Assembly: GCA_021432655.1 (NCBI GenBank)
Contig: MU271450.1
Span: forward strand, 1 to 54,446
Direction: 5' to 3'
Length of the DNA stretch: 54,446 nt
Source of the DNA: Atractiella rhizophila
Lineage: Eukaryota
The stretch's first letter is position 1. Each line of letters begins with the position of its first letter. Under the pieces are notes generated by a model, which saw only the letters and a list, made by a program, of their open reading frames with translations, was not told where the DNA came from and did no database searches. The translations under genes were made by a program, and so were the position numbers. Below, in pieces: positions 3,426-53,155 of this stretch.

Positions 3426-3744
3426 TCAAAAGGCAACTGGAGGAGTTGCCTCACCAACCGTATTCCAACTTGACTGCGGAGGGAAAGGCTCATTAAAGGC
3501 TCCTTGTCATTTCATTAGTTTCTTTCAGCTAGATCGATTAATTTGAAAGAACGTACTGGCGATCAATCCGGCCATGACAGTCAACATCATGTCTTTCGGG
3601 AAGAGGATCCGTTCTCCACCTACTTCCACTATGTAACCCTTGTCCTTTTTGTCCTGGCAAAGGGCATCGGACAGGCTAACTAGAAGAATGGAGCTTGACA
3701 CTCACGACAATCCTCCCCTGGATAGTGTTAGGGGATGTTTCCAT
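3426..3744 (-). CDS. Microprotein family copy 1 (3 exons, 70 aa, C-terminally extended)
   Basis: Exons 3744-3706, 3653-3557, 3502-3426; introns GTGAGT..CAG and GTACGT..AAG; METSPNTIQGRIV|DKKDKGYIVEVGGERILFPKDMMLTVMAGLIA|RAFNEPFPPQSSWNTVGEATPPVAF*; TATAAAAA at 3844-3837. Confidence 0.8.
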
Positions 3745-4734
3745 ACTGTGCGTATGATTAGAGTCCAAGTGCAATAGATAGATATTCAGGATGTGAGATT
3801 TCGGAGCCTTGGATCGAGCGAATGGACAGAATCGTCTTTTTATATCTAGCCCCTGCATGCTGGCGGCTTGCAAATATGCCAGACTCCCCAAAGACTGGGG
3901 CTGTGTCAGCGCTGAGACGCCTAAGGGCATTTCACGTCATCAAACTATCATCAATAACTCGCTCGAACTGTCAATCCAGTCTTCCACAAACATGTTCGAC
4001 GGGATTCTGTGGTCAATTTAATTGTCCCAGGAAAACGTACAAGTTTTCCCGAAGAAGCTGCAATTAGTCATCGTACACGTCTTTGAATTCAGCCTGCAGT
4101 TCTAGTGTTTGGTTACTTTCACTCTTATTGCAAGTGAACGAATCTGAATGGACCACAACTCAGTTCGGCGTCGAATATTATCGTACTTGTCCGTTGGACC
4201 TGGACCGATTGCTCCTCTGTTACTGTCAGTTCTCTCGAAAGGCTGTGGGGCCGACGAACGAGCTGGACGAGGCGAATATGGAGGTTGAGCAACTATACCA
4301 ACAGTTAATAAAGCCGATTCATCCGCAGCGTCCAACATTCACACCTAGCGACCGTGGGTCATTGTACCGAAACGTGAACAGTCCAACAATGGACGCAGCA
4401 CGGGTCGCTTTCCGAGTTTTCCCGTAAGATGTTGGCTCTTCAAGCCGTATTTGTTAAATTAATAACTCGTAGCAGGTTCTAGGTAAGACATGAGCAAGAG
4501 GAAATAGCTTCTGTTGCTTGAGACTTCGAATCAAAGCACGAACATTGTCCGCCAGGTGAATGCAGCAGAGGAGGGTAAGGGAAGCAGGATTTTGTAGCTT
4601 CAATGTCGTTCCAGGGAGTTGTCGTCTCACGTGACCTTCATATGGTGACATGAATGCATTCATGCGCAGACTAGAGGGGGCAACATCACTTGGATAAGTT
4701 GTCTGACCAATAATGCTACACCAACAGGGGGCAT

Positions 4735-4984
4735 TTAAACGCCTTAACCCATGGTTTAACGTGTGTCGTCCAATAAACTGAAAGGACGTACGGGCCAGCA
4801 TTATAGCAAGGACATTCAAAACCATTTCCTCAGGGAAAAAGTGTCGCTCACCATTTACTTCGATGATGTATCCGCCTTCAGTTTTTTCCTACAAAGAGGC
4901 ATCAACCGAAGAATGAACGCGAAAGAAGAAAGGCGAGAGATCTACCGCCAATCGCCAGTAGGGAGCATTCAAAGATGATTCCAT
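4735..4984 (-). CDS. Microprotein family copy 2 (3 exons, 47 aa)
   Basis: Exons 4984-4946, 4888-4792, 4742-4735; introns GTAGAT..TAG and GTACGT..AAG; MESSLNAPYWRLA|EKTEGGYIIEVNGERHFFPEEMVLNVLAIMLA|RV*. Confidence 0.85.
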
Positions 4985-5878
4985 GCTGGTAGTCGCAATG
5001 CAATCGATAAGATGACAGGAGGGTTTCAGACTGTTGGAGTTGGGCGTGAGTGGCACTTGATGGGGGTGGCGCAGATCTGGAGGGGAGTGGCAGGCTTTTT
5101 CTACTCCCATGTTTGTCTCTGCGCCTCCATCCCTCGAGCAACCAAACCTCCAAGCGGTTATTTATAACAACTGTGTTTGAATCGCACGACGTGGATGTTG
5201 ACATCCAATCCCTTATTCATGCGGCCCTCCGCTATACCCAATCCGAGACAATTACCAAACACCCTCCAATCTCAAACCAGGACAAAAAGTGACGAATGAA
5301 GTTACTCGATTAGGAACGAGGAGGACGAGAGGTGAGCAGGTGTCCAACCCGTCAAAGTCTGCCGGTTGATATATTGGCCGGAATGCGTTGCCCACCCCAT
5401 TTGGGTGTCAACCCTCCGTTTTTTCGCTCACCACAGTGTTTGTTCCTGCATCCACGACGTCCCACGAACTACTGGCTCACAAATAATGTGAAACCATCCC
5501 ATGAGATGTTTGTAAGAGGACAGCAACCACACGAAGTGTCTCTCGCATCTTGGAGCACTCCTGCAATTGGGTCTACTCACAAACTCATCGATCATGGGGA
5601 TAATGAAAGATCAAAGCGACATCATGAAGGGCCGGGCGTCCCGTGTCGTCCCCCATCCGTCTTCCTCTCTCTATGAGCAGACTAGCCAACCCACCAAAAC
5701 CCATTCTTCGCCAAAGAAGAATGCAACTCAGCGTTCTCGCAGATCTTCCTGCCTAACTTATGCTTCATCCTCCTACCCCAGCATAGAAATACGGAGAACT
5801 TGAAAGGACGCAGAAGGTAGAAGGGAGGAAGTTGGTGGATTCAAGGGGATTAGAAGAATTCTATGATGTCGACTGTCT

Positions 5879-5944
5879 ACGCGTGGCGACTTCCTGCGCC
5901 AGCCATGTCATACACCGCGCCGCATTCTGGAGAGTTGCACGCGT
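5879..5944. promoter_or_regulatory. Two MCB-like boxes (ACGCGT) upstream of the AlkB-family gene
   Basis: ACGCGT at 5879-5884 and 5939-5944, 75-140 nt upstream of ATG 6018. MCB elements are typical of fungal DNA replication/repair promoters. Confidence 0.45.
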
Positions 5945-6017
5945 CTAATTTAAAACTGAACTGCACTTGCTCCCATCCCATATCCTCTCCTTCCCACTTC
6001 CCAGGGTCAAAGCCAAC

Positions 6018-7285
6018 ATGAAATCGAGCAAACGACCCCGCTCCCCTTCTCCACCTCCTCAACCTTCCTCGTCTGCGGCAGTTCTCCCACCAACTCATAC
6101 GAGGAGCAGTGCTGCCGACGTGAGCTTTGATTCGCTTTCGCCTTACCGCCTCTCCCAGCTGCCTGACAGCGAATTCTACTATCTACCATCCCTTCTTTCT
6201 CTCCCTTCGCCCCTTTCGACAACTCCGAACAAGTCTGCCGTACTCGGAGAAGACGAACGGTCGAAACTGGACAGATGGTACAAAGACCTCATGGACTCGT
6301 GTCCCTGTACTTATCCTCCTCCTTCCCTCATCTAAATCGTAAACCATCGCTGAGACTATCTTCCTTGGAATTGAAAGGGTACCACCCCACGCTGAAGCTG
6401 TATGGCAAACCCGTCCTGCAATCCCGCGCCATGGCCGTCTACTCCTTACTCCACTCCTCCTCCTCTCCCCAAGTGCGGTATTCGGGAATCGACGCCGTCG
6501 TGCACCCTTTCGAAGAGGCTCCGGAAGCGCTGAGGGAGATCAAAGAGGTGGCGGAGCGTATTTGTGGGATGAAGTTCGAGCATGCGATGGCATGTCCTTC
6601 CTTCTCGCTACAAAGAACCGCTCTCGCTGATGAATGAATGATTGGGAAACAGGTCAATAGGTATGATGATGGCTCAGTCTACATAGGTCCACATCGCGAC
6701 GTCGTCCCGAAGCTTCCAAAGACCACGAAGTCCAAACGCAAATCAGAAAAAGCAGGAGGGACGACGAAGCGTCAAAAAGTGTCTGTCTCCAGCGTGGCCG
6801 ACAATTCAATCAAGACCAAAGGAAAGGGTAGCGCCTGGGAGGATGAACGGGAGGAGGAAGGAAGGGTTGATGAGGCTGAGGAGGGAGAGGAGGCGACGGA
6901 AAGGTTCACCGTCGTCTCTCTCTCCCTTGGTGCCGCCAGGACTTTCGTACTCAAACACCAGGCTCCCCCTTCGAGTGTCCCCGGATCCAAAGCGTCCAAA
7001 CCAACGAAATCCACCAAATCTTCGACATCCTTAACGTCGAAATCGAAACTGGACGCGTCCGAAACCTCCACATCGCTACAGGCTGAGAATGGGGATGAAG
7101 AAGGGAAAGAAAGCGAAGAGGGAGGAGGGAAGATGTATTCTCACTCCTTCCCGCTTGAAGATGGTAGCTTGTTGATTATGCGTGGTGGGGAAACACAAAA
7201 GTGGTGGAAACATGAGATTCCGCGAGAGAAGGGGGTGGTGCGTGGGAGGATCAGTGTTACGATGAGAGGGGGAGTGATGCCTTGA
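6018..7285 (+). CDS. AlkB-family (ALKBH2/3-like) 2-oxoglutarate/Fe(II) dioxygenase, 3 exons
   Basis: Exons 6018-6306, 6378-6589, 6653-7285; intron 1 GTACTT..AAG, intron 2 GCATGT..CAG (GC-AG). The spliced product has WYHPTLKLYGKPVLQSR, RYSG, NRYDDGSVYIGPHRD (HxD), VSLSLGAARTF, LEDGSLLIMRG, WKHEIP (distal His) and RISVTMR. Confidence 0.88.
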
Positions 7286-8817
7286 TACAAATACAACCGT
7301 GTGTCTTCTTGTTGCGTTTAAGCTGTACCTTTCGGAATGTCAAGTGTGGTATTCATTCTGTGCAAAGCCAGCGCATCCTTCCGTTTTGCTTCTACCCTTT
7401 CTAATCGCTCAACTGAGAACAAAATACAAATACCTTAATCCCACCGTATGAGGTTCTATGAAAGCACAATGACTTGAACGAAATTGAATGAAAACAGCCA
7501 CGGCCCCTTTGTCCTCTTCAGCTTTACAGTAGAATTATAATGATACCTGAGTTTGTTCAATTATTCTCACCCACTCTAAATTCTCAAACGTTTACAGAAC
7601 TGTGCAGAGCGATTGAAAGTATGAAATATCAATATACAAGTCTCCTCGAACAATTTGTCATGCTAAATAAACTTAAATTTCTGGGCAGACGCAACGAGAG
7701 TAGTAATAACGAAAGTAACAATATAGATTGCTGATTTCCACCGTAAAGCAGAGTGATGGGACTCGGAAGTCGGCCAAGTTTCTTGAACTAACATTCCAAA
7801 GGAGCCTCTCAGATAACTAAGATGCGAGAACTCAGAAACGATACTCGATCAAGAGAGAGACGGTCCCTGAGGTCCTCCTAGCTTTGACCATAGATCGCCG
7901 ATGTAAAAGATGGAGTAGGGCGAATGCAGAAAAACGAGTAGGGCACAGAAACGAGAGCTCGGGAGTAAATCGCTAGGACGTCTTCCGAACGATCTTTCAG
8001 GAGGAATGAAATGCCAAAGCCATGTTCCTCCTCGCGGCCAACGTCAATTTGGCTGTCGATGAAAACAAGTCTAAATAGTGTGGATCAGTGCCAGCAGTAA
8101 ACGCTTGATTGCTACACTTTACAAAAACACACTTCCCAACGTCTCATTCCGTCGGCACGAAGGGGAGAACAACGACATCAGGAAACGAGAGTAGCGGCAG
8201 ACCGAATCAATGGTTCATTTCGGAAGTGACGCAAGTGAAGCTGATCATGAGTGGGCGGGTGGCGCCCATCGATGGCGTTGATTTATTGAAAAGTCGGATC
8301 GATGGCTTCGGGTAGATGGGCGCGTCCAGACGGTATGTTCTGTTGCAATGTCAAGTGTTACTGGAGTGAAAAGGTTGGAGTGTTTCTTCCAAATCGCCGA
8401 ATCTTACCTGAACGGCTATTTTTCAGCAGTCCATTCGATATTATTCTGTCTGATGATGTTTCGTGCACCCGCGTCCTGGAAGAATAGAAAAAGTTGGGAT
8501 GGAGATGTGGAATGCGTAGGAACGAGCTGGCTGTCTTGTCGCGTCATTCACTCTTCGTCGAAAATGGTAGAACGTGCCAATGTGGAAGCATGATGGATTA
8601 TCTCTCCGGTCAGGTGTGGTCACTTGCTGAGACCGTCATACAACGGTTATTCATTGTACCCTGATGCGAATCCATACTCGTTCTCCTCGTTCACTGGTCT
8701 CCGGCGTGGATTGCAGCTCGTCCTCGCTGATTCCTTTAAACCCCGAGAGGTTTTGTTGATGGGCATTAGGATCGACGTTTGTTAAAAATCATGGTACAAA
8801 CCGCCACAAGCGATGGC

Positions 8818-9878
8818 TCAGGGCACAGCCAAAAACGACAGTCTTATCTTTCTATCAACTTGACAGCATTACGCCGCTTTTGGGTGTGTGGCAGGTGACA
8901 AGCTGTTTGTGAGATGGGCTGAATTGAATTACCAACACACGATCTGACACCTGTGGAGGCGTCTGGACCTAGAAATGGATAGAGAATAGAATGTTGGGGC
9001 GAGTATAAAGGAAAGAGTGTGCCCGGTCTCGTTCCCTCACATCGAACTTTTACCACACACCGCTCATTTCTATCCAGAACTCGCAAATGGAGAGGTCCCC
9101 TAACACTAACCAGTTTAGATTTGTTGTGGCTCTCCTTCGCATCTCCTTTTGTTATCACACTAATTCTCTTTTGCAGGAAAGAGTCGAAGGTGGATACCAA
9201 ATCGAATTAAATGGAGAAAACCACTTTATCCCTACAGATATTGTGCTGGCTCTCCTTGCCGGATTGCTTGTCCGTATGTTGATTTGTTTTTGCATCATCT
9301 ATTGGGAGACGCTGACGGATGATGACGGGATAAGGTGGAATTTGATCGTCTTCCTCAAGTCCCATGTGCTCAGTGCTACGACTGCTGTGTGCTTTTTGGT
9401 CGGGTTGGGGGAATCAACATAGCCACTCACGTCTGTATCATGCGACGGATTCAGTCGTCCTGACGCCAGCTTCTCAGCGCTTTCCCTACACGTGGATCTC
9501 TTCTATATAACGAATGACGAATGCATTTCACTGTTCTTTCCTGTACCTCACTTATGTGAGGCTCAAGCAAGCATGCAGCTACTGGGATGGATCCAAAGTG
9601 AATCATCATCCTTTCTTGACTTTGATAACTACTTCCCTTTCATCGAATCAGGAGGGATCTGACATCTTCAGCCGTGACCATTTGATGATTGCAGAGATGA
9701 CATAAGAAGAATGCACTGTGGGATGTTATGCACAACGCCAACAGCAATCAAATGGAGTGACATGATCGCAGGGAGGGAATGGATTGTGAAGCAACTGTAG
9801 ATCCGTTCAGGGTATTCGTACATAAACAACTTTTGAACAAGAACTTTTGGGATGTACAACACCGCTGTATAAAGTATT
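8818..9878 (+). repeat. Putative donor copy of a ~1.06-kb direct duplication (other copy 10817-11875)
   Basis: Colinear high identity from TCAGGGCACAGCCAAAAACGACAG to ACCGCTGTATAAAGTATT in both copies. It contains a whole microprotein gene. Confidence 0.95.
9087..9345 (+). CDS. Microprotein family copy 3 (3 exons, 48 aa)
   Basis: Exons 9087-9125, 9177-9273, 9335-9345; introns GTGGCT..CTAAT..TTGCAG and GTATGT..GCTGAC..TAAG; MERSPNTNQFRFV|ERVEGGYQIELNGENHFIPTDIVLALLAGLLV|RGI*; TATAAA at 9004-9009. Confidence 0.85.
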
Positions 9879-10387
9879 CCTCGTATCTTCATCTAGAATT
9901 CTCAGCGCACATTGCGAATGTGACCTGAATCGTTTGATAGTTGACAAATAGACATGAATACGCCACCAGCATGGAATATTCAAGTTAAAAAGGAACCAGC
10001 CTGGAATCTATATTACTGCTTTTGAGACTGATAACTTGGGTTTCGGGTTTGAATATTTGGATCGTGTTTGACCAGACTTGAGCGATTCATCACTCTATTT
10101 CAGATTGAGCACTGAGAGAGGAAAAACGGGCTTTTCAAGATCTTGGGAGAATAAGCACTTAATAAAATTTCACACCCTCCTTTTATCATATGAGAGGAAG
10201 CATTTAAGACTCACCTTAGAGCGGCGATCCGCTAACTAAATCACAGCCATAAAGTTCTCTGTCTTAAAGCTTGCCTTTCCCTCTTCCAACAACTCGTTAA
10301 CACAACACTATTTCCGCCATCACGTGAACTGTAAAAAACCTGCGACCCCGCGCGCGCCCGCTCTGCGCTCCATTCAAAGTCAGAAGG

Positions 10388-10820
10388 ATGTTGCCGCCGC
10401 CCCTTCACACTCCTCTGCGCCTCCTCCATCTGCATCCGCGGGAACTGAACCTACGAGCTGTGCTGTTGTGTGGACAGGCATTTCGCTGGACGCGCTCTCC
10501 GGCTTCTGTCACCGTTCACAACAATGAAGCAGAAGGTCCAAGTGGTGATGTGGCTGAGGGCAGACTGGAGCGTGGAAGAGAAGGCGAGGCGGAGGAGTGG
10601 AGCTTGGCATGGGAAGACAGAACTGTCGTTTTGAGGCAAATTGGTGTGCCTTCTTGCTCCTCCCAATTAGTTGTACACAGAGCTAATTCTGAAGTTGCAC
10701 GTAACAGGGAAAGGAATTCTCTACCGCTCACTGTACCTCCCGGCAGCCGCTTCCCGTACTGCTTGGTCCCTCGACTGCCAGAAGGATACGACGCGTCCAC
10801 TGCTCGAAGAATACTTTCAG
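10388..10820 (+). pseudogene. OGG1: 8-oxoguanine DNA glycosylase, 5' part (OGG_N domain), interrupted
   Basis: ELNLRAVLLCGQAFRW and EWSLAWEDRTVVLRQ, intron 10644-10707 (GTGTGC..GCTAAT..CAG), then ILYRSL..TTRPLLEEYFQ. Homology stops exactly where the duplicated segment starts. Confidence 0.88.
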
Positions 10821-11875
10821 GGCACAGCCAAAAACGACAGTCTTATCTTTCTATCAACTTGACAGCATTACGCCGCTTTTGGGTGCGTGGCAGGTGACAA
10901 GCTGTTTGTGACATGGGCTGAATTGAATTACCAACGCACCATCTGACATTTGTGGAGGTGTTTGGACCTAGAAATATATAAAGAATAAAACGTTGGTGGC
11001 GAGGTAATAAAGGAAAGAGCCTGCCCAATCTCGTTCCTCACATCGAACTTTTACCGCCCCCGCTCATTTTATCCAGAACTCGCAAATGGAGAGCTCCCCT
11101 AACGCTGACCAGCGTAGAATTGTTGTGGCTCTCCATCGCATCTCCTTTGGTCATTACACTAATATCACCTTTGCAGGAAAGAGTCGACGGTGGCTACCGA
11201 ATCGAATTAAACGGAGAGATCCACTTCTTCCCTACAGATATTGTGCTGGCTCTCCTTGCCGGATTGCTTGTCCGTATGTTGATTTGTTTGCATCATCTAC
11301 TGGGAGATACTAAAGAATGTTGATGGGATAAGGTGCAATTTGATTGTCTCAAGTCCCACATGCTCAGTGCTACGACTGCTGTGCGCTTTTTGGTCGTGTT
11401 GGGGGAATCAACATAGCCACTCACGTCTGTATCATGCGACGGATTCAGTCGTCCTGACGCCAGCTTCTCAGCGCTTTCCCTACCCGTGGATCTCTTCTAT
11501 ATAACGAATGACGAATGCATTTCACTGTTCTTTCCTGTACCTCACTTATGTGAGGCCCAAGCAAGCATGCAGCTAGCCACTGCGATGGAACCAAAGTGAA
11601 TCATCATCCTTTCTGAACTTTGATGACTACTTTCCCCTTCATCAAATCGGGAGGGATCTGACATCTTCAGCCGTGACCATTTGATGATTGCAGAGATGAC
11701 ATAAGAAGAATGCACTGTGGATGTTATGCACAACGCCAACAGCAATCAAATGGAGTGACTTGATCGCAAGAAGGGAATGATTGTGAAGCAACTGTAGATC
11801 CGTTCAGGGTATTCGTACATAAACAACCTTTGAACAAGAACTTTTGGGATGTACAACACCGCTGTATAAAGTATT
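10817..11875 (+). repeat. Duplicated segment occupying the place of the OGG1 catalytic core
   Basis: Copy of 8818-9878 lying between OGG1 EEYFQ and FLGGKKG, with short junction microhomologies (TCAG at left, TTYCTYG at right). Confidence 0.92.
11086..11343 (+). CDS. Microprotein family copy 4 (3 exons, 48 aa), inside the disrupted OGG1
   Basis: Exons 11086-11124, 11177-11273, 11333-11343; MESSPNADQRRIV|ERVDGGYRIELNGEIHFFPTDIVLALLAGLLV|RAI*. Confidence 0.85.
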
Positions 11876-12389
11876 TCTTGGCGGGAAGAAGGGAGGTAAG
11901 GGAAAGTATACGATGAGTAAAGGCATATATGACAAGATCCAAGTTGCTTTTCGGGAGCGGTGGGGAGAGTGGAGTGGATGGGCGCAGCAGATTTTGTTCA
12001 CAAGTGATTTGAAGGGTTTTGAGGGGTTCGATTGGTCTGAAACGCTAGCTGCGAAGCAGGTGGAGGTTTTGAAAGTCGAAGAGGAGGAAGTTGAGGGGAA
12101 GACAAGGGTTATGAAGAGACAGAGAGAAGTGGAGTTCGAAAATAACGTGAAAAGCGAGATGAGGATGACTCGGAAGAAAATACGAGTGGACGAAAAATCT
12201 ACGACAGTTACTGCGGAGCAAGGGGGAGCCAAGCTGGAGGACGCGGACGAAGGGTGGGGAGGGTTCGGCGATCCATATCCCACCCCTCTTTCTTTGGTTA
12301 TGGAGAAAACGATTGATTTGGTCCAGAATGATGACTGCATTTTGGCGGAGAGTGTTAAAGGAAGGAAAGGGAGGACGCGGATGCGGTGA
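11874..12389 (+). pseudogene. OGG1: 8-oxoguanine DNA glycosylase, 3' part
   Basis: FLGGKKGGKGKYTMSKGIYDKIQVAFRERWGEWSGWAQQILFTSDL matches the OGG1 C-terminal F..WG..aGWAq..LF..DL motif. It is followed by an open acidic/basic tail to TGA at 12389. Confidence 0.85.
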
Positions 12390-13481
12390 GCACTTTATAC
12401 AGCTGTGTTGCATCCCTTGGAGGTTCTTTGCTCGAAGTCCATGCCAAGTATCTGTGTAAGATCGTTCAAAAAAGCGTGTCTCTCAAGAAAGGAAAGGGAT
12501 GCGTCTCGATCTTGAGCACAATTATACTTTTTTTCACAATCCACTCCAACAATGGTTTACTATGCTCCTTGACTTGCATCTGGAAACCTTATCCTAATTT
12601 CATCGGTGTGACCTGCCGTTAACCATTCTCATATTGCAATGTTTTTGTTTCTCGTTGTCAACGGTGGTTTTTAGATTGTTTGAATAGCCTTTGTGTTTTT
12701 TAATGGCAGCGCGAACTTGTTCACGCTGGAACTTGTAGTACTTTGCGATGGAAGAATTGTTATCCTCGACGTTGCCTCTGTGCAGTTGACGAATGACAGG
12801 CTCAGGTACCTCAGGTACACCACCCCATGGCCTAGCTTAGCTGTCCGTCATCGAACGCTTCCATTTTAGTGAACATCCGCCACAATCTATTCAAAGCAGT
12901 GCTCCGTTCAACAAGATGAGCAGATTTTGACAGGTATGCACCAGTATATATCTCGGCAAAGAAGTGGTGCTTGTAGGGAGGTGGTGTACCATCGAAGAAG
13001 ATACCGGATATTAAGGCGCCTGCAGAACTGCTCCCAGAGCTCCGTGTTTCCTGCGCGATGCATGGGGGTTCAATCTTTTCCGTCCATATATGTAGCAGCT
13101 GCCAAGGTCACCGACGTTGGTGTGAAGAATGTGAAGTAATATGGGAGAGCATTCCGCTTTGCTTGAGTTTTAAAGAAACTAGGATGATTTCATATCACAA
13201 CCCCGCCGCTTACAACGCGTTTGCAGACTGTTTGCTCTGAGGTTTGGGTGAGATGAAGGGGAAGATACGCTGCTCCATGACGTTCCCTCTTCAAAAGGGT
13301 CATTGTGTCTCATTGGATACCGAGAAAGAACGGTAAATTCATTTTAAATCAGACAAGAAGACGATCCTTTCTGAAAGCAGGAGAAGCGAAGATTGCGAAT
13401 ATAAGAGTCCATCACGTGATTCGGTGAAGAAGTGACAAAATTGTTTTGGTAAGTGCGACTGGAATAGTTGTAATGTTACGC

Positions 13482-13721
13482 TCAAGTGAGGGAAGTGTCT
13501 AGCTGGTGCCTTACCCTATATATCAGCGTTTGACATCAGAAGAGTTAAAAAGCGAAAGAGCTTACCGACCAAGCAATCCAGCAAGAACAACCGACATTAT
13601 TTCTGTTGAGAAAAAGTATCTTTCTCTGCCCACTTGCACTGTGTAACCGCCTTCTACTTTTTTCTGCAAGATATGCATCAGACATTGGCTGAAGGAAACG
13701 TAATGGGAGACCCACGATCAT
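13482..13721 (-). CDS. Microprotein family copy 5 (original start lost, short MI exon 1, shifted second donor; possibly a pseudogene)
   Basis: The upstream start position reads ATA GAA (13745). Next is ATG ATC|GTGGGT..TTGCAG, exon 2 from 13663 KKVEGGYTVQVGRERYFFSTEIMSVVLAGLLG, a GTAAGC donor one base later than in other copies, and tail RHQLDTSLT*. TATAAA at 13810-13805. Confidence 0.6.
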
Positions 13722-13974
13722 TCTTAGTTTTGGACAGACTTCTATACAGAATACAGTGCACCAACCTGAGGAATCAGGGAAGAGTATGGGAGCTCAGCAG
13801 CGTCTTTATACCCTGCTGTTAGCAGTCGCGATCCCACCCAACCACCCAACGGGGAAGAGCACAGTTTGGATTTGGAGTAATATCGTCATCGTTCATACAC
13901 CTAACCTCTTCATGCCAGACTTCCGCCCGATCCGGAATGTAACTAGGTAATCCACGAACTAGGTGAACAAACGA

Positions 13975-14107
13975 GGTGAACCAACGAGGTGATCTCGTAG
14001 TCTACGAGGTGTACCAAGTAGTCAACGAGGCGAACCAAGTAGTCAACGAGGCATACGAAGTTGTCGACGAGGCGCACGACGGAGTCGACGAGCTGAACGA
14101 ACTGTCG
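13975..14107. repeat. Imperfect ~21-bp tandem repeat
   Basis: Units such as ACCAAGTAGTCAACGAGGCGA / ACCAAGTAGTCAACGAGGCAT / ACGAAGTTGTCGACGAGGCGC / ACGACGGAGTCGACGAGCTGA. Confidence 0.8.
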
Positions 14108-14574
14108 CTATCTAGTGAGCGATGTGCTGCTATGTCGCGAACGAGGGCTACGATGTAGTGTTCCGTCGTCAGCTGGTCGTAGTTACCCTTACCGAGATAT
14201 CTAGATCCTAGCCAGAAGGTGAACGAATGAAGCAAGGAATACAGCCCATGGCTGGCAATGCCACTGGCGAGCAACAGTTCAAGGGAGATCTAACTTACAG
14301 GCTTCTCAATCCTTCCAGCAGAATAAGTAGGGCCCAACTGACAGCTTCGGGCTAGCCTCATCGAAGCCTCATTGACACGCCACCGAAAACAAACACTGCC
14401 CACGGTACCACCTCTCCCCCAACTGACCACGTGTACTCCTATGTCTACGGCAGCTCCAACCAATCTCTCTGTCCCTTCCCAAACGCCCATCCTCGCTTAA
14501 TCCTCCATTCCAACACCGCTTGCCATGCCCACCGACAAAGCCGACGTTGTCTATGAAGTGCCGTGCCAAAACGA

Positions 14575-24524: not shown

Positions 24525-24750
24525 TTAAGTGGCGGCTGATCACACCTTCAGCGGCTCTCACAAGTCACGGGCTAAGAATCTAATAACGACTTCTAATACA
24601 ACTTCTTCAGGTAAAATGTGTTGCACTTCGTAAATTTCAATTTTGAATCCACTCTTGGTTTTTTCCTACAATGACGAATCAGACGATTCAAGGAAAGTGA
24701 AGGAAATTTACAATGAATCGCCAGTGATTAGTAGTGGCGGATGGCTCCAT
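24525..24750 (-). CDS. Microprotein family copy 10 (48 aa; second intron only 33 nt)
   Basis: Exons 24750-24712, 24665-24569, 24535-24525; MEPSATTNHWRFI|EKTKSGFKIEIYEVQHILPEEVVLEVVIRFLA|PAT*, or RDL* if intron 2 is retained. Confidence 0.8.
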
Positions 24751-27358: not shown

Positions 27359-27632
27359 TTAAGTGGCGGCTGATCACACCTTCAGCGGCTCTCACAAGCC
27401 ACGGCGAATCTAATAACGACTTCCAAATCTAATAACGACTTCCAAATCTAATAACGACTTCCCAATACAACGTCTAATCAGGTCTTCAGGCAAAACGTGC
27501 TGCACTCCGTTGATGTCGATTTTGTATCCGCTCGCGGTTTTTTCCTACGTCATGACGAATCGGACGGTTCAAGGAAAGGTGTGGGAAACTTGCAACGAAT
27601 CTCCAGTCCCTAGTAGTGGGGTATGGCTCCAT
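27359..27632 (-). pseudogene. Microprotein family copy 11, frameshifted by an insertion and a 19-bp triplication
   Basis: MEPYPTTRDWRFV|(GCAAGT..TAG intron)|EKTASGYKIDINGVQHVLPED then out of frame LIRRCIGKSLLDLEVVIRFGSRY* (stop at 27410). Confidence 0.78.
27407..27462. repeat. 19-bp tandem triplication AATCTAATAACGACTTCCA
   Basis: Three consecutive units. The paralog at ~24577-24595 has a single unit. Confidence 0.95.
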
Positions 27633-30348: not shown

Positions 30349-30593
30349 TCAAGTGGCAGCTAATCACATCTTCAGCGTCTATCATCAAAGAGATAAGAGA
30401 GAACCCACCGGCGAACAACCTAATAGCGACCTCCAAAATAACTTCTTCAGGCAAAACGTGTTCCAACCCGTCGATTTCGATTTTGAATCCGCTCTCGGTT
30501 TGTTCCTACAAAACGACGAATCAGATGGCTCAAGGAAAGTCGAGGGTGACCTACAATGTATCTCCAGTGGCTAGTGTTGGAGGATGGGTCCAT
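30349..30593 (-). CDS. Microprotein family copy 12 (3 exons, 48 aa)
   Basis: Exons 30593-30555, 30505-30409, 30359-30349; MDPSSNTSHWRYI|EQTESGFKIEIDGLEHVLPEEVILEVAIRLFA|AAT*. Confidence 0.85.
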
Positions 30594-35323: not shown

Positions 35324-35571
35324 TCAAACCGCCCCTAGTGCACCGCTTCAGGTTCTTCGCTATCAAGAAGGAAGACTGAACACACGGGCAAGCAATCCGG
35401 CGAGAACAGTGAGCACCATTTCTTCAGGGCAAAAGTGATGCTCGCCGTCTACTTCTATGATGTATCCCTCTGCAGTTTTTTCCTACAAAGGGAATTAGAC
35501 AGGCAACTGAAATAAACGTGAGGAAGACTAACGACAAAGCACCATCTACTATAATCACCAGACGCCTCCAT
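35324..35571 (-). CDS. Microprotein family copy 14 (3 exons, 48 aa)
   Basis: Exons 35571-35533, 35482-35386, 35334-35324; MEASGDYSRWCFV|EKTAEGYIIEVDGEHHFCPEEMVLTVLAGLLA|RAV*; TATAAA at 35684-35679. Confidence 0.87.
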
Positions 35572-40000: not shown

Positions 40001-40007
40001 AAGTAAC

Positions 40008-40497: not shown

Positions 40498-40541
40498 GAA
40501 GAATACTCTCTTTACCTTTTCAGAACAGCAAAACTTAAAAA

Positions 40542-41852: not shown

Positions 41853-41863
41853 GACGGCGGTGG

Positions 41864-44800
41864 GTGGAAGAAGTGTCCCCATCGCCGAATTGCAATTCAT
41901 TTACGTCACATAAAATCACTTCCAACAAAATGCCGCCCAGCACAGTATTCCCCCCACAAGAACAAGACTCCCCATTCCCGAAATTGCGTTTTCCCTCCTG
42001 GAGACAAAGATGCGCAGAAGTCGCAAAAATGTACGACAAAGTCCACCTACGCTCGACAACAGCATCCCTTGTCAGTTCGAAGACGAAGCTCAGAACCGCA
42101 TTCCACCATCCGCATTCCCATCGCCGACAGGCCACATCGGCGCTCGTCGACAGCGGCGCAACTACTTCTTTTATTTCTCAAAACTCGTTTCTGCATACAA
42201 CCTACCTGTCACTCAACTTCCTTCCCCAGTACCTGTTTATAACATCGACGGATCTCTCAATCAAGGTGGATCCATCCACTCTGTTACTTATTTGCCCATT
42301 TCGATCGCCGCTCACCATGAAGTTTGGCAATTCGCTGTAGCGGAGTTAGGGACTGTCGACATGATTTTAGGCCACGACTGGCTAAGACACCACAACCCAG
42401 AGATCAACTGGGACTCAGGGAAAGTTGAGTTCTCTCGTTGCCCTACCAGTTGCAATGCAGATGACGTGTCTACCACTCACGAAAAATTCCCGCCATCATC
42501 TACCTCGATACGAGCCGCTATGACAAAATCGCAGAAACTGGCGAAAGACGCAGCGGCGATGAGACCAAAAAATGTCGTCGAAATACCAACGCAAATCGCC
42601 GATTTTGCAGACATCTTCAACGACGAAAAATCCAAAACTTCTCTTCCTCCCCGACGTCCTTGGGATCACGCGATCAACCTCATACCCGAATCACGACCAT
42701 ACGTGGGCCCGGTCTACCCCTTGAAAAGAGACGAACAAGCGGCGCTCGACCAGTTCATTGACGCCGAACTAAGCGCCGGTCGTATACGTCCTAGCACAGG
42801 AGAACATGGAGCTTCTGTTTTTTTCACGCACAAAAAAGACTCCTCCAAACTTCGTCCCCTTTTCGATTATCGAAAGCTGAACGAAGCCACAGTCAAAGAC
42901 AAGACCCCACTCCCCATTCAAGCTGACCTCTTTTCCATGGTTTCTGGTAAGAAGTTTTTCAGCAAGATTGATCTGAGGAAAGGGTTGAACAACGTTCGTA
43001 TCAAAGAAGGAGACGAACACAAAGCGGCGTTTCACACAAATCGAGGACTTTTCGAACCATTGGTAATGTATTTCGGGCTCTGCAACTCACCGGCGACTTT
43101 CCAAGCTTTCCTGAACTCTATTTTCCGCGCGATGATCGCCGCTGCGTTCATCTTCATATACATTGACGACATCCTAATTGCGACAGAAACTGAAGAAGAA
43201 CACTGGGAACGCGTTCGAGAAGTTTGTCAAATTTTTAAAATGGGCTTTATGTTAACTTACAGAAATGTGTCTGGTGTCAAAGCGAAGTAGAGTATCTAGG
43301 ATTGATCATTACCAGCAGAGGGATCGAACCGGATCCAGTAAAGGTTGCAGGAGTGATGGATTGGCCGGAACCGAAAAACATGAAGGAAGTCCAAATGTTC
43401 CTTGGTTTCGCTAATTTCTATCGCCGCTTTTGCGACAGATTTAGTCACATCGCAAGACCTTTATATGAACTGACCAAAAAAGAGATTTCCTGGGTCTGGG
43501 GGGTAGATGAACGACATTCGTTCGCTGCTTTGAAGCAGCTCATGACTTCGGCGCCCGTTTTGGCACATCCCGAACAAATAGGACGATTTTTGCTCGAAGT
43601 CGATGCGTCAAATTTCGCGACAGGCGCCGTTTTGTCACAAATGAAACCAGATGGGAAGTTTCATCCTCTTGGTTTCGTATCAAAATCGCTTGACGCTGCC
43701 CAGAGGAACTATGACACCTACGACAAAGAAATGCTCGCGATTATGCGGGGACTGCAAGAATGGAGTCACCTTCTACAAGGTACTGATGAGCCATTTCTGA
43801 TCTTGACCGATCACAAAAACCTTGAGTATTTCAGAATGCCGCAGAAGTTGAATCGCCGACAGGCACGCTGGATCACTGAACTTGCATCTTTCAACTTCAC
43901 ACTTTTACACCGTCCTGGGCGGAACTCCGCAAAACCAGATGCGCTCAGTCGGCGACCGGATCACAAACCGGCGACTTGCGACAACTTTGACGTAGTGTTA
44001 CTCCCAGAACGTTTTTTCAACACAGATCGTATCACGATCAACGCGACTGGGAGCGCGGTTGCGCTCACTAGACAAGTGTCGGAGTTGAGTATACTGGAAC
44101 GCGTGAAAAAGGTACCTGAACGAGAAGAACAAGTAGTCAAAGCCTTGAGAGAGATCCTAGACGAACCAGTCGACGCAATTCGCCGACGGGAGTGGCAAGA
44201 AGTCGATGGTGCTGTCTACTTTCGCGGAAAACTCTACATCCCCCGCGACGACGAAATTCGCCGCTCGATTTTGCAAGACCTACATGATTCGCAAATCGCT
44301 GGTCATCCAGGCGTAAAATCGACGACAGCTCTAGTAAAAAGGTACTATTGGTGGCCAGGTTTAGCGCACTACGTTCGCCGCTATGTCGGCGCCTGTCACA
44401 CTTGCCACAGAACGAAAAACTTTCCTTCCCCACCTGTCGGGTTTTTGCAACCAAATGACATCCCCACACGTCGCTGGCAAATTGTCAGCATGGATTTGGT
44501 TGGACCACTCCCAGAATCTGGGCGGTTCGACACGATTTTCGTCATAGTAGACAGACTCTCAAAACGCACCCATCTCATCCCCACCCATTCGACGATGGAT
44601 GCAGAAGGCCTTGCAAGACTCTTTCGCGATCACGTATGGAAGTTGCATGGACTTTTCGATGTCGCAATTTTCGATCGAGGCAAAGAGTTCGTGTCCAAAT
44701 TCACATCCGCGCTTTTTCGCCTATTAGGTATCAAAGGTTCACCATCGACAGCCTATCACCCGCAAAGTGATGGTCAGACTGAACGCATGAACCAAGAGGT

Positions 44801-45090
44801 TGAACAATATTTGCGCATTTTCTGCAATCACCTTCAAGATAATTGGGTGGAAGGACTTCCCAACGCAGAATTTGCGCTCAACAATCGCGTCAGTTCAGCG
44901 ACGGGCGTAACTCCATTTTCGCTCGATTGCGGTCAACATCCACGCATGGCCTTTGAACCCATCTCCGACGAGGACGTTCCCGCGGCGGCGCAATTCGTCG
45001 AAAAGATGCAAATCGCCGACCGGGAAGCACAAGCGGCACTCGAGCAAGCAGCAGATCTCATGGCAAAACATTATGACAGAAAACGCGCTG
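41864..45090 (+). pseudogene. pol: Pol polyprotein (protease, RT, RNase H, integrase) with frameshifts near 42180 and 43230
   Basis: ALVDSGATTSFIS; ILGHDWL..HNPEINW; FDYRKLN; YFGLCNSPATFQ; YIDDILI; FLGFANFYRRF; VDASNFATGAVL; TDHKNL; H..GHPG..CHTC; MDLVGPLP, DRGKEF, GQTERMNQ. Confidence 0.93.
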
Positions 45091-46625
45091 TATTGCATGT
45101 AACTGTGGAGATGACAAAAGCGAAACAAACTTGGAAGCAGGCATCGTGAATCAGCATCTGTGAAGGCAAACATCTCAAGAACCTGGAATGCTCATCATTT
45201 CACACCACCCATCAAATGAACCGGATTTCATTCCGGTTCTCTGGACAACAGAATCTGACCAGGACATGTTTCAAGTGCGCCGAAGCAAATCCTGTTGATT
45301 GTGCCATTTTGCAAAATCACAATCTGCAGACTTGAGCAAATTAGGTCGAAGATGGAGTGATGAGAAAACTCAACCAGAAAGCCTATTACGGACACACACC
45401 TCTGCTCCCCTTCCAACTTCCCATCTCCAGTGTAACAGCTTGTTTTGTTCAGTTAATGGATACTCAAATGATCATCCTATACTCTAAGATTCATCAGTTC
45501 TAGGCATGAGTCATAAGACGCACTTTTGAGCCCTCACACCTCCCCCACCATACACAATAGAATGAAATGTATTATACCATCATATCCCATATGCTTGCCC
45601 CTTTCTGAACCTGCAAGGAAATTTTATTCTGAAAGGGTTCAAAAATGCGTTTCGTACTGGACTCGAACCCTGACAACGGTCACAGTAGGGTTCAAGGGGC
45701 CATGCCCCTTGCAAGTGGGTGGGGGGCCTGAGGGACGAAGGCCGTTGACACACTTGTCAAGACCAAGATTTCAACATTTCAAGATTGGCAACCAAAGTTG
45801 TCGGAACCGGCTGAATCCTGACAAGTTTTCTCTTCCGCTGACGATGAAGTTTCTTGCAGTTTCTTCATTGCTCCCAGCATCCTGGCTGGACCTTCCTCAT
45901 GGCAATAAAAAGGACCAACATGTTCGTCTCTTCTCTCTCCTCTCTCCAAAACTCTAACTAATCAAATTATTAGTCCATTACCATGAGCCACGATGATGGG
46001 CTTGATTTTTCACAGGTGTTTGGTATGGAAGCCGCTTCACATTAATTCTATCTCTTCAGAACCTGTCCTCAAACCTTGGAGGGATAGGAGGTCATTTTGG
46101 CTTGCATGGATCATCGTCAGACTCAGATATCCATGCTGTCGACAGATCACGAGCTCGCGATCATTCTGACTTTGATCTAAGGCATCGACAACCTGTAGTG
46201 CTCTGCACTACAGGACCTCCCAGTCCAAACACTCGGAGTGGGCATGAGCTATCTTTGGAAGAACTCAACAAAGCCCTACTAAGGCTTATTGACAACAACC
46301 GGTTTCTGCAATGGTCGGATCTTGTAGGATTGACGGCTTTTGCTAGGATTAGTTCTTGTTCTACTATTCACCTGCAACCCTGAAGCATTAACCTTTATCG
46401 GCAGTACCACATTGCGATCCAGCTGACATCGATCTATGCCACCCAAGTGGGACTTCAGCGGCAGTTCGCAGACATTGCGAGACGAGACAACGAGTGCATT
46501 TCAAAAAAATCACAGCTAGGAGATTGACAAGCTGAGATTTGGGGCAAAATAATCCCGATATTGTTTCTCATCGTTCAGCAGGAGCAGTTCAATCACCGAT
46601 GATGCGACAGTCCGCTGAGGATGAT

Positions 46626-48139: not shown

Positions 48140-49370
48140 CTTCTTTTATTCCATTTTCCAACAATCAATCTACGGAAAACATCTGGCAACATCAGACAGC
48201 TTACACGCCCGCTTATCTGACGTTCCTCAAATCCAAACTCCAGCCGTTGGCTGGCCGACCTACGTTTTCCGTCTCCTCCTCTGTTCTTCAGCACCTGTCT
48301 TCAACTCCTCCGTCGAGGTCACTCGTACAATTGGCTAGGACGTCGTTTACAGCTTCCCCTTCGTCCTGGATCAGGTCCTGGATGACGTCTCCAGGCTCTC
48401 CCTTCCTTCTCACCTCTCCTCCAGTTTTCCGAAAGAGAGGGCCAAGCTCTCCGTTTTTACGAACGTTCCAACTTCCGCCTCTCATCCGCATCAACGAACG
48501 AACGAACGGACGACCACCTTTTCTACCCTCCTCTGCTCTCAAGCCCCTCCGTCTCCTCCAATTTCGGCCAAACCATGTAGGAGTGAAGCTAATAGGGAAG
48601 ACGTACTCCTTCCCGCCATTAAACCACTTTAATTGCTCAACCCAATCCCCAAACCTCGTCCTCTGGTCGTCCTCCGGTCGAACGACGCTTACCACGGCAA
48701 ATAACAAGGAGATGAAGAGAATGAAGGTGGGATAGCAACAGCGCCGATGAGAGGGCATATCAAAAGCGAGACTGAGGTCTATTGATGAGCACGAGTATGC
48801 GTCACTCGCCCCTATGGACGACCGCATGTTCCGAAGGGTTCGAACAGTACGGCTTTCTTGGCGGGAGAGGGAAAGGAGAAACTGTGTGTGACAAAGGTCA
48901 GCACGGTTAGCGGACTGTGGGGAAGCGGAGGGCATGAGTGCTGCAACACCTCCTTCAGACCTGTTTCGCACTTATTGAACCCTTTGGAACCCTTTACTCC
49001 CTTTTGAAAAGAGAGAAGGAGAACCGTGAGAAGGGCAGATAGACTCATGAAGTCGGAGATGTTGACTTTGAAACATGCTGATTGTTGGGATAACGAGGAT
49101 TCGAAAGACGTAATCGAGAATGTCGAGTCTGCGCCGGTTGTCGAGGCAGGACAGGAACCGAAGAGGATCCCTCAGAGGAGAAGGCTGGGCGGTCCATGCT
49201 GCACACCCCTGGCTTTGCTCATGGAGAAGACGGTTGATTGTCCAGGAATATGAAAGCAGTTTAGGCGGAGACAATTAAAGGGGAAATGGAGGACGCAGAT
49301 GCGGTGAGTATTTCCTAGCCGTGTCACGTAGAGTGGGCGTTCTTCGTCGAAGTTTTGCATTCTGTGTGAA
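48140..49370 (+). pseudogene. OGG1: Decayed OGG1 relic
   Basis: LAPMDDRMFR and QYGFLGGRGKG at ~48805-48880. 49180-49350 aligns with the OGG1 3' end (ATGGAGAAGACGGTTGATT..GGAGGACGCAGATGCGGTGAG). Confidence 0.68.
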
Positions 49371-50805: not shown

Positions 50806-51060
50806 TTATATCGCTCCTTATTCCATCCACCAGTCAAATCAGGCAGGAGGGGAGAAAAAGCGAAACAACGGACGAGCAAGCAAACCAGAAAGAATGGTCA
50901 AAATCATTTCTTCTGGGAAGATGATTAGCTTCCCATTGACTTCAACTATGTATCCGCCTTCCACTTTTTCCTACGAAGAGGATTCAGACGGATAGCTCAA
51001 AGATAAGGTGCGGTGGCTTACGATAATTCTGTGCTGACCAGCGTTCCAGGATGTTTCCAT
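50806..51060 (-). CDS. Microprotein family copy 16 (3 exons, 48 aa)
   Basis: Exons 51060-51022, 50970-50874, 50816-50806; METSWNAGQHRII|EKVEGGYIVEVNGKLIIFPEEMILTILSGLLA|RAI*. Confidence 0.87.
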
Positions 51061-52905
51061 ACTAGAGAGTGCAGGAGTAATGGATAGCAATCAGCAAGAG
51101 ATAGAAAGGCTCTGGGTTCTGGAGGAATGTGACACCTCCTTTTATGCCTGCTTTTCAGTGACATGTGATTGTCAAAAAAAATGTCTTGCCCAAGGCCTGA
51201 CAAATGACGTTGCAATCTTAGGAAGCCAGTTCGGTCATTTATGCACCTGATACGCGACCTGAAGGAAATAGAAGAAACATGCTAAACTAGGTCGAGGAAC
51301 CAATTGTTACATCCGAAGAGAGAAAGGGGCAGGAAGGTAGACCAGTCTGTATCAAAGTTATCGGCCCATTGATGTCAAGTAATCAATGTCTACCACATTT
51401 CCGTCACAGGGCAAGACCAAAACCGTCAGCTCTGCGGAAAACTGCAATCCTGGAAATTTGCGTCTGAGGAAGGTAAGTGCGAGTGAAGATACGACTGTTG
51501 ATGTTATTATATATCCCAGATACATACAATATCGAAATGTCGACATGTGAACTACGAGGGGAACTTGAGAAACATGTCAATTTGGATAAAGGTTAAAATT
51601 CTGTTCCGGTTCCGCGATTACGCGCTGTCAATGTTCTGTTTGAATGCGTCGCAGCCGCTTCGCTGATTCAACGCTTTCACTGAAGTCGCCTAGGCAACTG
51701 AACCTCTCCACACCCGGGCCCTTCCACCTAGAAAAATGGAATGCCTGAAGGAAGATGCAAGTAAATTGAGTTATGGATAGGCTACCCTTGGGCTTTTAGC
51801 GTCACTCTACCGCTTTATAGAGCGGAGTTTCGCATGCGACATTAAGGAATCCCAATTCTGATGTCGATTCCCGTTCCTTTCTGCCAAATGCGGATACGAC
51901 AACCATTTGAAACTCCCCATGTACTGTGTACTCTTGCCCAAACTACGCTACACAAATAGAGACCTACCCCATCCGACCTCCCCTCCGACTCTCCTCCGTC
52001 TCCCTTTTGTATTCCCCATACCAGTTACCCTTGTCTCGATCCTCCCAAGTGATCGTCCCACATTCCAGTTGCGCCACTCCAACATAACCGACCGCCTTAA
52101 GGCCGAAAGCCGCTGCAGCTCTGTGCTGTCAACCTTTTCGAAGGCAGGAGCTGAGGAGGCTCCGACCTTCGAGTTTCGGGTCTAACCACCCCTTGTCCTT
52201 AAACAAATGTCGATTGGAAATGAGTATTAAAGAATGAGGGCAAAGTTAATGTTCTTATTTTAGGGTTAACATGAAGTACACGTTTGAGAGTTTAATTTTG
52301 CTTCCCTTCATGCTCTTGGCATGACCAATCCGCTCGTCTCTGCGTCTTTGCGTCTTGATGGTTCTGAGACTGGTCAACCATTGAACGCTCGGCTTTACTG
52401 TGGGGACATTAGTCAATCACAGAAACAGAGCGAAGGAGTTTCGCGCCGTTTGAGTGGAGGAGCCAGCTGGAATGTGCACATTACTGGTAGAAGCACAGTA
52501 GGTGTCAAGACGCAAGTGTTTGTTCAGCTTGAAAGTTCAGCGGTTCCTTGTCACCGTATGTCAACTAGGTACAAAGAAATAGTGGAAGGGATGACTGCTA
52601 CTTCATCCATCTCGTACCTCAGATAACCTTCATATCGCAATGTAAAAAGGAACCATTAAATGCAATTTCGAACGAATTTCTGGGCTAAAACAACTTTTTT
52701 TGAAGAAGACTGGGCAAGCTGGAAACAGGCCAATCGAGAGGGTTGGGACAAGGAAGCGACGACATGCATCTCCAGGTAAAGCAAGTTGCACCATCTTCCA
52801 CGTCAGCTAGGAAAGAAGGGGTGGGTAAGTGAAAGTAGGGCATTCGAGAGGGCTGGCAATGGAAATGACGACTTGTTTCTCGAGGCAAAGCTACCGGGAT
52901 GCGCT

Positions 52906-53155
52906 TTAAATCGCTCCTAGTACAACGCCTCAGCTTCTTCTCTATCAAGAAGGAAGAAAGAACACACGACCAAGCAATCCGGCAAGAACAGTGAGCACCA
53001 TGTCTTCAGTGAAAAAGTGACGCTCGCCGTCTACTTCGATGATGTAGCCGTTTGCAGTTTTTTCCTGCATGGGACGAATTAGACTCGCACCTGAAATAAA
53101 TGCGAGGAAGACTAACAACAAAGCACCACCGACTAGGATTACTAGACGCCTCCAT
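52906..53155 (-). CDS. Microprotein family copy 17 (3 exons, 48 aa)
   Basis: Exons 53155-53117, 53064-52968, 52916-52906; MEASSNPSRWCFV|EKTANGYIIEVDGERHFFTEDMVLTVLAGLLG|RAI*; TATAAA at 53260-53255. Confidence 0.88.

Follow-up and report, generated by a model that had tools for sequence, protein, structure and literature searches.

A lineage-restricted, birth-and-death array of predicted miniprotein genes in Atractiella rhizophila

Atractiella rhizophila is a root-associated basidiomycete of the Pucciniomycotina. The 54,446-nt stretch of its genome analysed here (the window, to which all coordinates refer) carries an array of small three-exon genes that share a 97-nt second exon and are predicted to encode a miniprotein of about 48 residues. 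An initial annotation, made from the DNA letters, had counted 17 copies; tblastn with the 32-residue exon-2 peptide of one copy as query recovers 17. Copies are named by the letter c and the start of exon 2. Two of them (c9177 and c11177) lie on the plus strand and the other 15 on the minus strand. The exon-2 frame is open in 15 of the 17 and broken in c22637 and c27544. The copies are as follows.

3426..3744, minus strand: copy c3653; exon 1 3744-3706, exon 2 3653-3557, exon 3 from 3502
4735..4984, minus strand: copy c4888; exon 1 4984-4946, exon 2 4888-4792, exon 3 from 4742
9087..9345, plus strand: copy c9177; 48 aa; within a 1.06-kb segment (8818-9878) duplicated at 10817-11875
11086..11343, plus strand: copy c11177; 48 aa; within a decayed OGG1-like gene
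13482..13721, minus strand: copy c13663; exon 1 of 2 codons, exon 2 of 98 nt (RNA joint), shifted tail, 43 aa
16504..16778, minus strand: copy c16720; exon 1 of 2 codons; model of 56 aa
19028..19320, minus strand: copy c19199; exon 1 of 19 codons; 58 aa; identical to NCBI protein P0002
21012..21270, minus strand: copy c21175; 48 aa
22544..22700 (upstream limit approximate), minus strand: copy c22637; pseudogene with an exon-2 stop and frameshift, donor lost
24561..24750, minus strand: copy c24665; exons 1 and 2 intact; intron 2 cut to 33 nt, 3′ end doubtful
27407..27632, minus strand: copy c27544; exon 2 disrupted by a 19-nt tandem repeat present 3.2 times (27407-27466)
30349..30593, minus strand: copy c30505; 48 aa
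33639..33891, minus strand: copy c33810; exon 1 of 10 codons; 51 aa (44 aa with another acceptor)
35324..35571, minus strand: copy c35482; 48 aa
46626..46871, minus strand: copy c46783; 48 aa
50806..51060, minus strand: copy c50970; 48 aa
52906..53155, minus strand: copy c53064; 48 aa

The shared architecture described in the initial annotation is recovered: an ATG exon, a phase-0 intron, the 97-nt exon 2, a phase-1 intron and a short tail. Of the 15 open copies, 11 have an exon 1 of 13 codons, in line with the claim that most copies do, and the remaining four have one of 19, 10, 2 and 2 codons; this exon ends in W-R-F-V or a variant. Intron 1 is of GT..AG type and phase 0 and measures 46-64 nt across the open copies, while intron 2 (GT..AG, phase 1) measures 46-61 nt. 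Over its 97 nt, exon 2 aligns with zero indels in all 15 open copies; the RNA joint of c13663 implies an exon 2 of 98 nt. The last exon adds two or three codons and a stop in 9 of the 14 modelled copies, and the longer tails belong to c3653, c16720, c19199 and c33810. In c3653 the shifted stop and long tail give a model of 70 aa; c4888, with introns of 57 and 49 nt, gives 47 aa. Exactly 48 aa are encoded by 8 of the 14 models. Nine had been claimed, of which eight stand; the ninth, c24665, would reach this length only with a 33-nt intron 2, which is implausibly short.

A TATA-like box upstream of the short ATG exon had also been proposed, and this is largely borne out. Ten of the 15 open copies have the motif TATAWA 73-118 nt 5′ of the ATG, against a background expectation of 0.07 per 160 nt. 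Four further copies have a one-letter variant (GATAAAA or CATAAAA) at -71 to -99, so that in most copies the distance is 70-120 nt. The exception is c4888, which has neither box nor variant within 160 nt upstream.

RNA evidence comes from the contigs of one public run (X1), matched over 3300-23299 and spanning nine copies. The run behaves as RNA, since its contigs show canonical GT..AG joints in a neighbouring 2-oxoglutarate (2OG) oxygenase gene and in OGG1-like genes (6306>6378, 10642>10707, 14154>14205). The predicted introns are removed in vivo. Contig joints lie at predicted introns in five of the nine copies covered (c3653, c4888, c13663, c16720, c21175), which bears out the splice sites predicted in the initial annotation, where RNA mapping had been suggested as a check. 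Exact joints were found for intron 1 of c4888 (4887>4945, cut +1; 57 nt), intron 2 of c16720 (16570>16623, cut +1; 52 nt) and intron 2 of c21175 (21022>21079; 56 nt). Approximate joints, a few letters off, were found for intron 1 of c3653 (3647>3705), intron 2 of c13663 (13508>13566) and intron 1 of c16720. At 4791 a contig has a loose end whose 13 letters are the first letters of the predicted exon 3 of c4888. This match supports a 47-aa product of c4888 and not the 179-aa model deposited for it.

Database comparison shows the sequences to be public as unnamed hypothetical proteins of a family that is undescribed and without detectable relatives. At least 7 of the 17 copies (c53064, c19199, c33810, c4888, c50970, c3653, c11177) lie letter for letter inside NCBI models, and c30505 corresponds to a model (P0011) that differs by one residue and has another 3′ end. 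The library that was searched is clustered at 50% identity, so more of the 17 copies may have models. The genes had been presented in the initial annotation as hidden, and as too short and split for open reading frame (ORF) finders. Neither description survives, since at least seven are called in deposited models and one of these has exactly the three predicted exons. Deposited members include KAH8919687/88/91, KAH8919710, KAH8921109/14/24, KAH8917721, KAH8921482 and KAH8920778, with three more; none is named or assigned a domain. They disagree with one another: lengths run from 50 to 362 aa, N-termini are invented, 3′ exons differ, and one model is fused to an OGG1 relic. The exact three-exon model is that of c19199 (P0002). 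P0006 (c3653) keeps the predicted introns and starts at an ATG further upstream; P0005 (c50970) matches the predicted introns and adds one upstream exon; P0001 (c53064) matches in exon 2, intron 2 and tail and has a different first exon at 53941-53891. These last three models share the predicted intron 2 and tail. P0003 is a partial model of c33810, P0004 is the 179-aa model of c4888, and P0007 (362 aa) stitches exon 2 of c11177 as an internal exon into an OGG1-like relic.

Such models raise the question of whether the two conserved exons belong to longer genes, whose real products would be the longer deposited proteins of 179 aa (c4888), 110 aa (c30505-like), 362 aa (OGG1-like with c11177 exon 2) and 89-132 aa (from upstream ATGs). 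P0004, P0011, P0007, P0005 and P0006 would be examples, upstream exons are indeed spliced to exon 2 or exon 1 (4887>5694, 16807>17474, 17112>17474), and one contig runs 1.1 kb past intron 2 of c16720. The alternative 5′ exons lie 0.4-0.8 kb upstream (4888-5694 and 16773-17474, minus strand) and are joined to exon 2 of c4888 or exon 1 of c16720. However, the c16720 transcripts have non-coding upstream exons (introns 16808-17473 and 17113-17473), and the upstream exon of this copy ends with stops in all three frames; overall, the alternative exons either are stopped in all frames or lack an ATG. Among four copies the alternative upstream exons showed no mutual homology and no common ORF. They are second promoters or read-through from upstream units. 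The extensions of the longer models likewise differ between copies and are not alignable, whereas a TATA box stands directly 5′ of the short ATG exon in most copies, and an identical stop position is kept in eight copies drawn from three well-supported clades and the unresolved remainder of the exon-2 tree. The loose RNA end at 4791 fits a 49-nt intron and the 47-aa product of c4888 rather than 179 aa, and between 15666 and 16531, downstream of c16720, there is no minus-strand ORF of 50 aa or more. We therefore regard longer genes as distinctly unlikely.

That the short genes encode protein is suggested by their codon pattern, compared over 105 pairs among the 15 open exon-2 copies. Identity is 0.66 at codon positions 1 and 2 and 0.47 at position 3. 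The proportion of non-synonymous differences (pN) is 0.33 and that of synonymous differences (pS) 0.65. For the 76 pairs in which dS is finite, the median ratio of non-synonymous to synonymous substitution rates (dN/dS) is 0.35. Stops are absent from the coding frame in 15 of 15 open copies, and each of the five other frames is stopped in 8-14 of the 15. Global-alignment identities are 0.635 (exon 2), 0.56 (interior of intron 1), 0.55 (intron 2) and 0.51 (upstream 100 nt), with shuffled-sequence controls at 0.47-0.50. The coding signal, as read from these alignments, is one of frame, zero exon-2 indels and synonymous excess, not of plain identity. The contention that exons were kept while introns and flanks diverged heavily is thus sustained by frame, absence of indels and synonymous excess and was overstated for plain identity, where the gap is modest. 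Selection on the array copies is, by the same comparisons, purifying and on a protein product; here codon-position pattern, open frame and dN/dS agree with the initial annotation, which had seen the signature of selection on a real product. It had also called the array rapidly diversifying. In the sense of positive selection this does not hold at a median dN/dS of 0.35, and no gene-wide positive selection was found. Three properties of protein-coding genes are found together: (i) spliced RNA joints; (ii) a frame kept across diverged copies; (iii) synonymous excess.

The product would be a soluble, acidic, cytosolic miniprotein of about 48 residues (about 5 kDa). AlphaFold2 with the family alignment predicts for the paralogue P0008 three antiparallel strands followed by a C-terminal helix, with a predicted local distance difference test (pLDDT) score of 81 overall and above 90 in the core; the same strand-strand-strand-helix order is predicted for the c19199 product (pLDDT 76). 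In these models the end of exon 1 (W-R-F-V) would form strand 1, and the other two strands (2 and 3) would come from exon 2, as would an amphipathic C-terminal helix packed against the sheet. Of the 14 modelled products, 13 are net acidic (isoelectric point 4.2-5.2; net charge -1 to -6), and cysteines number 0-2. In all 14 models the 8-residue hydropathy maximum, taken over residues 1-22, lies between -0.72 and 1.09; by this measure none has the hydrophobic N-terminus of a signal peptide that a classically secreted effector would have. Hydropathy, cysteine counts and alignments agree with the earlier statement that signal peptide, cysteine framework and repeated core are lacking. Most copies also have no transmembrane-grade segment.

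It might be argued that the C-terminal hydrophobic helix is instead a membrane anchor and the product a micropeptide that is tail-anchored or membrane-active. Hydrophobic residues predominate among roughly the last 15, and 3 of 14 models (c9177, c11177, c21175) have a 19-residue Kyte-Doolittle maximum above 1.6. The other 11 fall below this value. In addition, the hydrophobic run of about 14 residues is flanked by acidic residues and Arg and is short for a bilayer span, and AlphaFold2 packs the helix on the sheet with pLDDT above 90. An anchor is on this evidence very unlikely.

Database searches gave no described family, as the initial annotation had supposed. Against Pfam-A at E <= 10, six of seven family proteins had no match and the seventh, P0009, had S1_2 as its best (E 0.27; 11.8 bits against a cut-off of 21.8). 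The family profile found nothing below E 0.09 among PDB sequences, and Foldseek gave 0 matches to PDB at E <= 0.001. An exhaustive structural search (VIA-align) reached at best Z 4.1, for COMM domains, SRP14 and PUR repeats, which the tool rates as a common arrangement. A homodimer prediction made without the family alignment scored 0.02, a value that says nothing about binding in either direction.

A profile of the 15 exon-2 peptides, searched against 1.84 billion representative proteins, returned 13 matches at E <= 0.001, all of them hypothetical proteins of Atractiella rhizophila. A homologue search with read-through stretches of 40-43 residues gave three matches, again all from this species. 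Restriction to Atractiella rhizophila is shown at the level of predicted proteins. P0008, P0009, P0010, P0012 and P0013 are five further members on four other scaffolds, copies beyond the window having been counted from deposited proteins alone, and these paralogues carry the pattern W-R-F/I-V ... G-Y-I-I-E ... P-E-x-M ... L-L-A. Proteins identical to window products sit on two public contigs (63,157 and 74,473 nt), so there may be two instances of the array region, either haplotypes or a large duplication. Metagenome contigs, scanned with a pattern from five close copies, gave 433 pattern matches, none of which was confirmed as a relative. An identical copy of a family sequence is in the ESM Atlas, which offers neither a model nor a usable look-alike for it. 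The literature searched nowhere mentions the locus-tag prefix, and the listed papers that name the species concern ecology or taxonomy.

Self-comparison of the window points to how the array arose. The 1.06-kb segment at 8818-9878 recurs at 10817-11875 with 92% identity, duplicated units of about 3 kb lie at 24, 27, 30 and 46 kb, and a block of 3-4.5 kb at 32.4-35.6 kb is repeated at 48.7-53.2 kb with 78-83% identity. The exon-2 tree has three well-supported clades (c9177 with c11177; c35482 with c53064; c24665 with c30505 and c46783), and the other copies form an unresolved star with long end branches. Relics of OGG1-like genes are interspersed with the copies, all on the plus strand.

10388..12386, plus strand: decayed OGG1-like gene; OGG_N start and C-terminal W-A-Q motif kept, no HhH-GPD part
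15038-15499, plus strand: further OGG1 relic, with stops and frameshifts
17980-18632, plus strand: further OGG1 relic, with stops and frameshifts
32905-33016, plus strand: further OGG1 relic, with stops and frameshifts
49213-49308, plus strand: further OGG1 relic, with stops and frameshifts

In the gene at 10388-12386 the 1.06-kb segment with c11177 stands in place of the HhH-GPD middle. An in-frame stop interrupts the relic at 17980-18200. The plus-strand OGG1 fragments (12271-12430, 15350-15499, 18510-18632, 32905-33016, 49213-49308) are convergent to minus-strand miniprotein copies, each lying 0.4-1.5 kb from the stop of such a copy. From this layout the ancestral unit was likely a plus-strand OGG1 gene with a convergent miniprotein gene on the minus strand. 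The family would then have grown by tandem and segmental duplication of 2-3.3-kb units, after which the OGG1 part would have decayed while the miniprotein gene retained its frame, its splice sites and usually its stop. Two clear pseudogenes, together with 3-4 further copies with altered ends, would make this a birth-and-death pattern. The decay of the co-duplicated OGG1 copies, noted in the initial annotation, is seen in the stops and frameshifts of the relics. Since OGG1 decayed while the small gene duplicated with it was kept, the small gene would be the cargo retained by selection, and we regard this contrast as the strongest argument for that view.

Contigs of run X1 break exactly at 10817 and 11874 and continue into other sequence, a piece of which recurs in the decayed OGG1 copy at 18003-18020. 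These breaks indicate that an intact OGG1 is expressed from another allele, locus or strain. Contig depth over 3300-23299 is highest (227) at 11971-12637 and second highest (104-109) at 17307-18640, a region of OGG1 relic. A homologue search with the OGG1-like model P0007 found only P0007 itself. Derivation of exons 1 and 2 from the HhH-GPD segment of OGG1 was considered, but Pfam, PDB-sequence and structural searches gave it no support. None of the seven family proteins scanned has a Pfam match to HhH-GPD; the family profile drew 13 PDB sequences at E <= 10, none of them an OGG1 chain, from a library that includes 32 distinct OGG1 sequences, and OGG1 is absent among the best 50 rows of the structural search.

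The duplication history also bears on whether the copies are transcribed relics or non-coding RNAs, with a frame that is open through shared descent and no protein product. The region is rich in decayed duplicates and holds a retrotransposon, antisense transcription crosses at least one copy, exon identity is modestly above intron identity, and the gene products are deduced from sequence and RNA. Against such an account, synonymous differences are near saturation (pS 0.65), yet the frame is open in 15 of 17 copies and exon 2 has zero indels. Position 3 diverges far more than positions 1 and 2 (dN/dS about 0.35), the OGG1 sequence duplicated alongside was in that time reduced to stop-bearing fragments, and the conserved residues give a confidently predicted fold. 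We judge untranslated relics to be as improbable as the membrane anchor.

The array stands among other genes and repeats.

6167-7285, plus strand: AlkB-type 2OG-Fe(II) oxygenase gene (2OG-FeII_Oxy_2, E 1.8e-13)
30811-31001: two 95-nt units, 100% identical, with starts 96 nt apart and one base between, just upstream of c30505
40539-45149, plus strand: Ty3/gypsy-type retrotransposon with gag, zinc knuckle, reverse transcriptase, RNase H and integrase over four ORFs

The oxygenase gene has a 71-nt GT..AG intron (6307-6377) that run X1 contigs confirm, and is a second DNA-repair-type gene near the OGG1 relics. The Ty3-like element showed no long terminal repeats within 38.5-47 kb.

Short, clustered, diversified and species-restricted products in a plant-associated fungus could also be precursors of exported or modified peptides: a ribosomally synthesised and post-translationally modified peptide (RiPP), a pheromone-like peptide, or an effector secreted without a signal peptide. 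The oxygenase gene, 1.2 kb from c4888, would fit such a scheme; it is, however, AlkB-type (2OG-FeII_Oxy_2) and present once, not once per unit. Fungal RiPP precursors such as those of the MSDIN and dikaritin (KEP) families carry processing sites and place a core that is hypervariable or repeated between a leader and a follower that are conserved. The miniproteins are instead conserved over their whole length as strands and helix, have no repeats or repeated core, and are predicted to fold compactly. The lipopeptide pheromone precursors of basidiomycetes end in a Cys-aliphatic-aliphatic-X motif; no Cys stands at the fourth-last position of the 14 modelled tails (...ARAI, ...VRGI, ...AAAT, ...CSII). 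A cysteine framework (Cys 0-2) and an N-terminal hydrophobic stretch are likewise lacking. Of the alternatives weighed here, an exported precursor is the least probable. Longer genes, membrane anchors, untranslated relics and exported precursors are thus each disfavoured by at least one of the results given.

We propose that the array is a real, lineage-restricted, birth-and-death gene family with predicted small cytosolic products, as its sequence indicates. Taken as a whole, the explanation that we consider probable is a lineage-restricted family of small protein-coding genes whose product is a soluble acidic miniprotein, evolving by birth and death and perhaps serving as a binding module. 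In the last step, which we hold with low confidence, the miniprotein would bind another macromolecule as adaptor, inhibitor or decoy. The idea comes from its being too small for catalysis, with conserved positions that build the fold and variable ones in turns or on the surface.

Several observations weigh against this proposal. The protein product is deduced from sequence and RNA-like contigs, and the binding step from reasoning about the product. Tails differ in 6 of the 14 models. The dN/dS is rough because dS is near saturation, and exon-2 identity is just modestly above that of the introns (0.635 vs 0.55-0.56). The RNA comes from a single run of unrecorded type, and strand, transcript ends and expression level cannot be read from its contigs. 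Among 15 of the 24 joints, those listed, none supports c9177, c11177, c19199 or c22637. The contig across c19199 is unspliced, only about 94% alike and joined to a plus-strand intron, which points to an antisense or paralogous transcript; a spliced plus-strand transcript at 18603-19607 (GT..AG intron 18604-19000) is antisense to this copy, and may, given the 94% likeness, come from an allele or paralogue. Some transcripts of c4888 (4887>5694) and c16720 (16807>17474 and 17112>17474) have other 5′ exons, and one contig extends 1.1 kb beyond the c16720 stop.

A more specific account would make the family an undescribed acidic intracellular 5-kDa fold, confined to one lineage and maintained as inhibitors or decoys in genetic conflict. 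In one version the miniprotein would be a protein or DNA mimic acting against a DNA-repair or mobile-element enzyme, which would fit the repeated co-duplication with OGG1 and the net charge of -1 to -6. In another, the products would be poison/antidote or allorecognition factors between nuclei. What speaks for conflict, suggested as speculation in the initial annotation, is the birth-and-death pattern and the genomic setting with its Ty3-type retrotransposon; we consider it unlikely.

For the broader proposal of a small, soluble protein family, the array is a natural experiment in which two genes were duplicated together many times, one decaying and the other being kept. The family offers a case of a taxonomically restricted miniprotein with RNA-backed splice sites, coding constraint and a confident predicted fold. 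It also illustrates the behaviour of automatic annotation, which called about half of the copies, each differently and mostly wrongly, and fused one to a pseudogene. If a function is found, this would be a new small fold family for fungal cell biology; at present it is an orphan family and not a new mechanism.

Among known folds, the COMM domain and the PUR repeat share with the miniprotein a common order of elements, three or four antiparallel strands and then a C-terminal helix. COMMD chains reach Z 4.1-3.3 over 50-53 aligned residues (root-mean-square deviation 3.5-4.0) and PUR repeats Z 3.3, values well below the informative level (under 8), and identity is 2-12%. These domains have 60-80 residues, lie within larger proteins and pair with each other, whereas the miniprotein has about 48. 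S1 and SH3-like modules (ribosomal protein S1, the HIV-1 integrase C-terminal domain, PhtD repeats) have a similar strand-turn-strand motif, G-G-Y/F-x-V/I-E-hydrophobic-x-G. They fill the top sequence and Foldseek rows without significance (PDB E 0.09-1.7, Pfam S1_2 E 0.27), only 20-34 columns align, and they are five-stranded barrels without a C-terminal helix.

In genomic organisation the closest parallel is with effector clusters. The smut and rust effector clusters are taxonomically restricted, tandem arrays of small proteins, as a rule secreted and often with cysteines. The miniprotein array resembles fungal effector clusters in being species-restricted and tandemly amplified, in having pseudogenes among its copies, and in lying in a repeat-rich region with a retrotransposon. 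It differs in that its products have no signal peptide or cysteine framework and look intracellular. Tandem, taxonomically restricted small-protein families are well known in fungi; the present one is unusual in that its members are predicted to be non-secreted, cysteine-poor and confidently folded.

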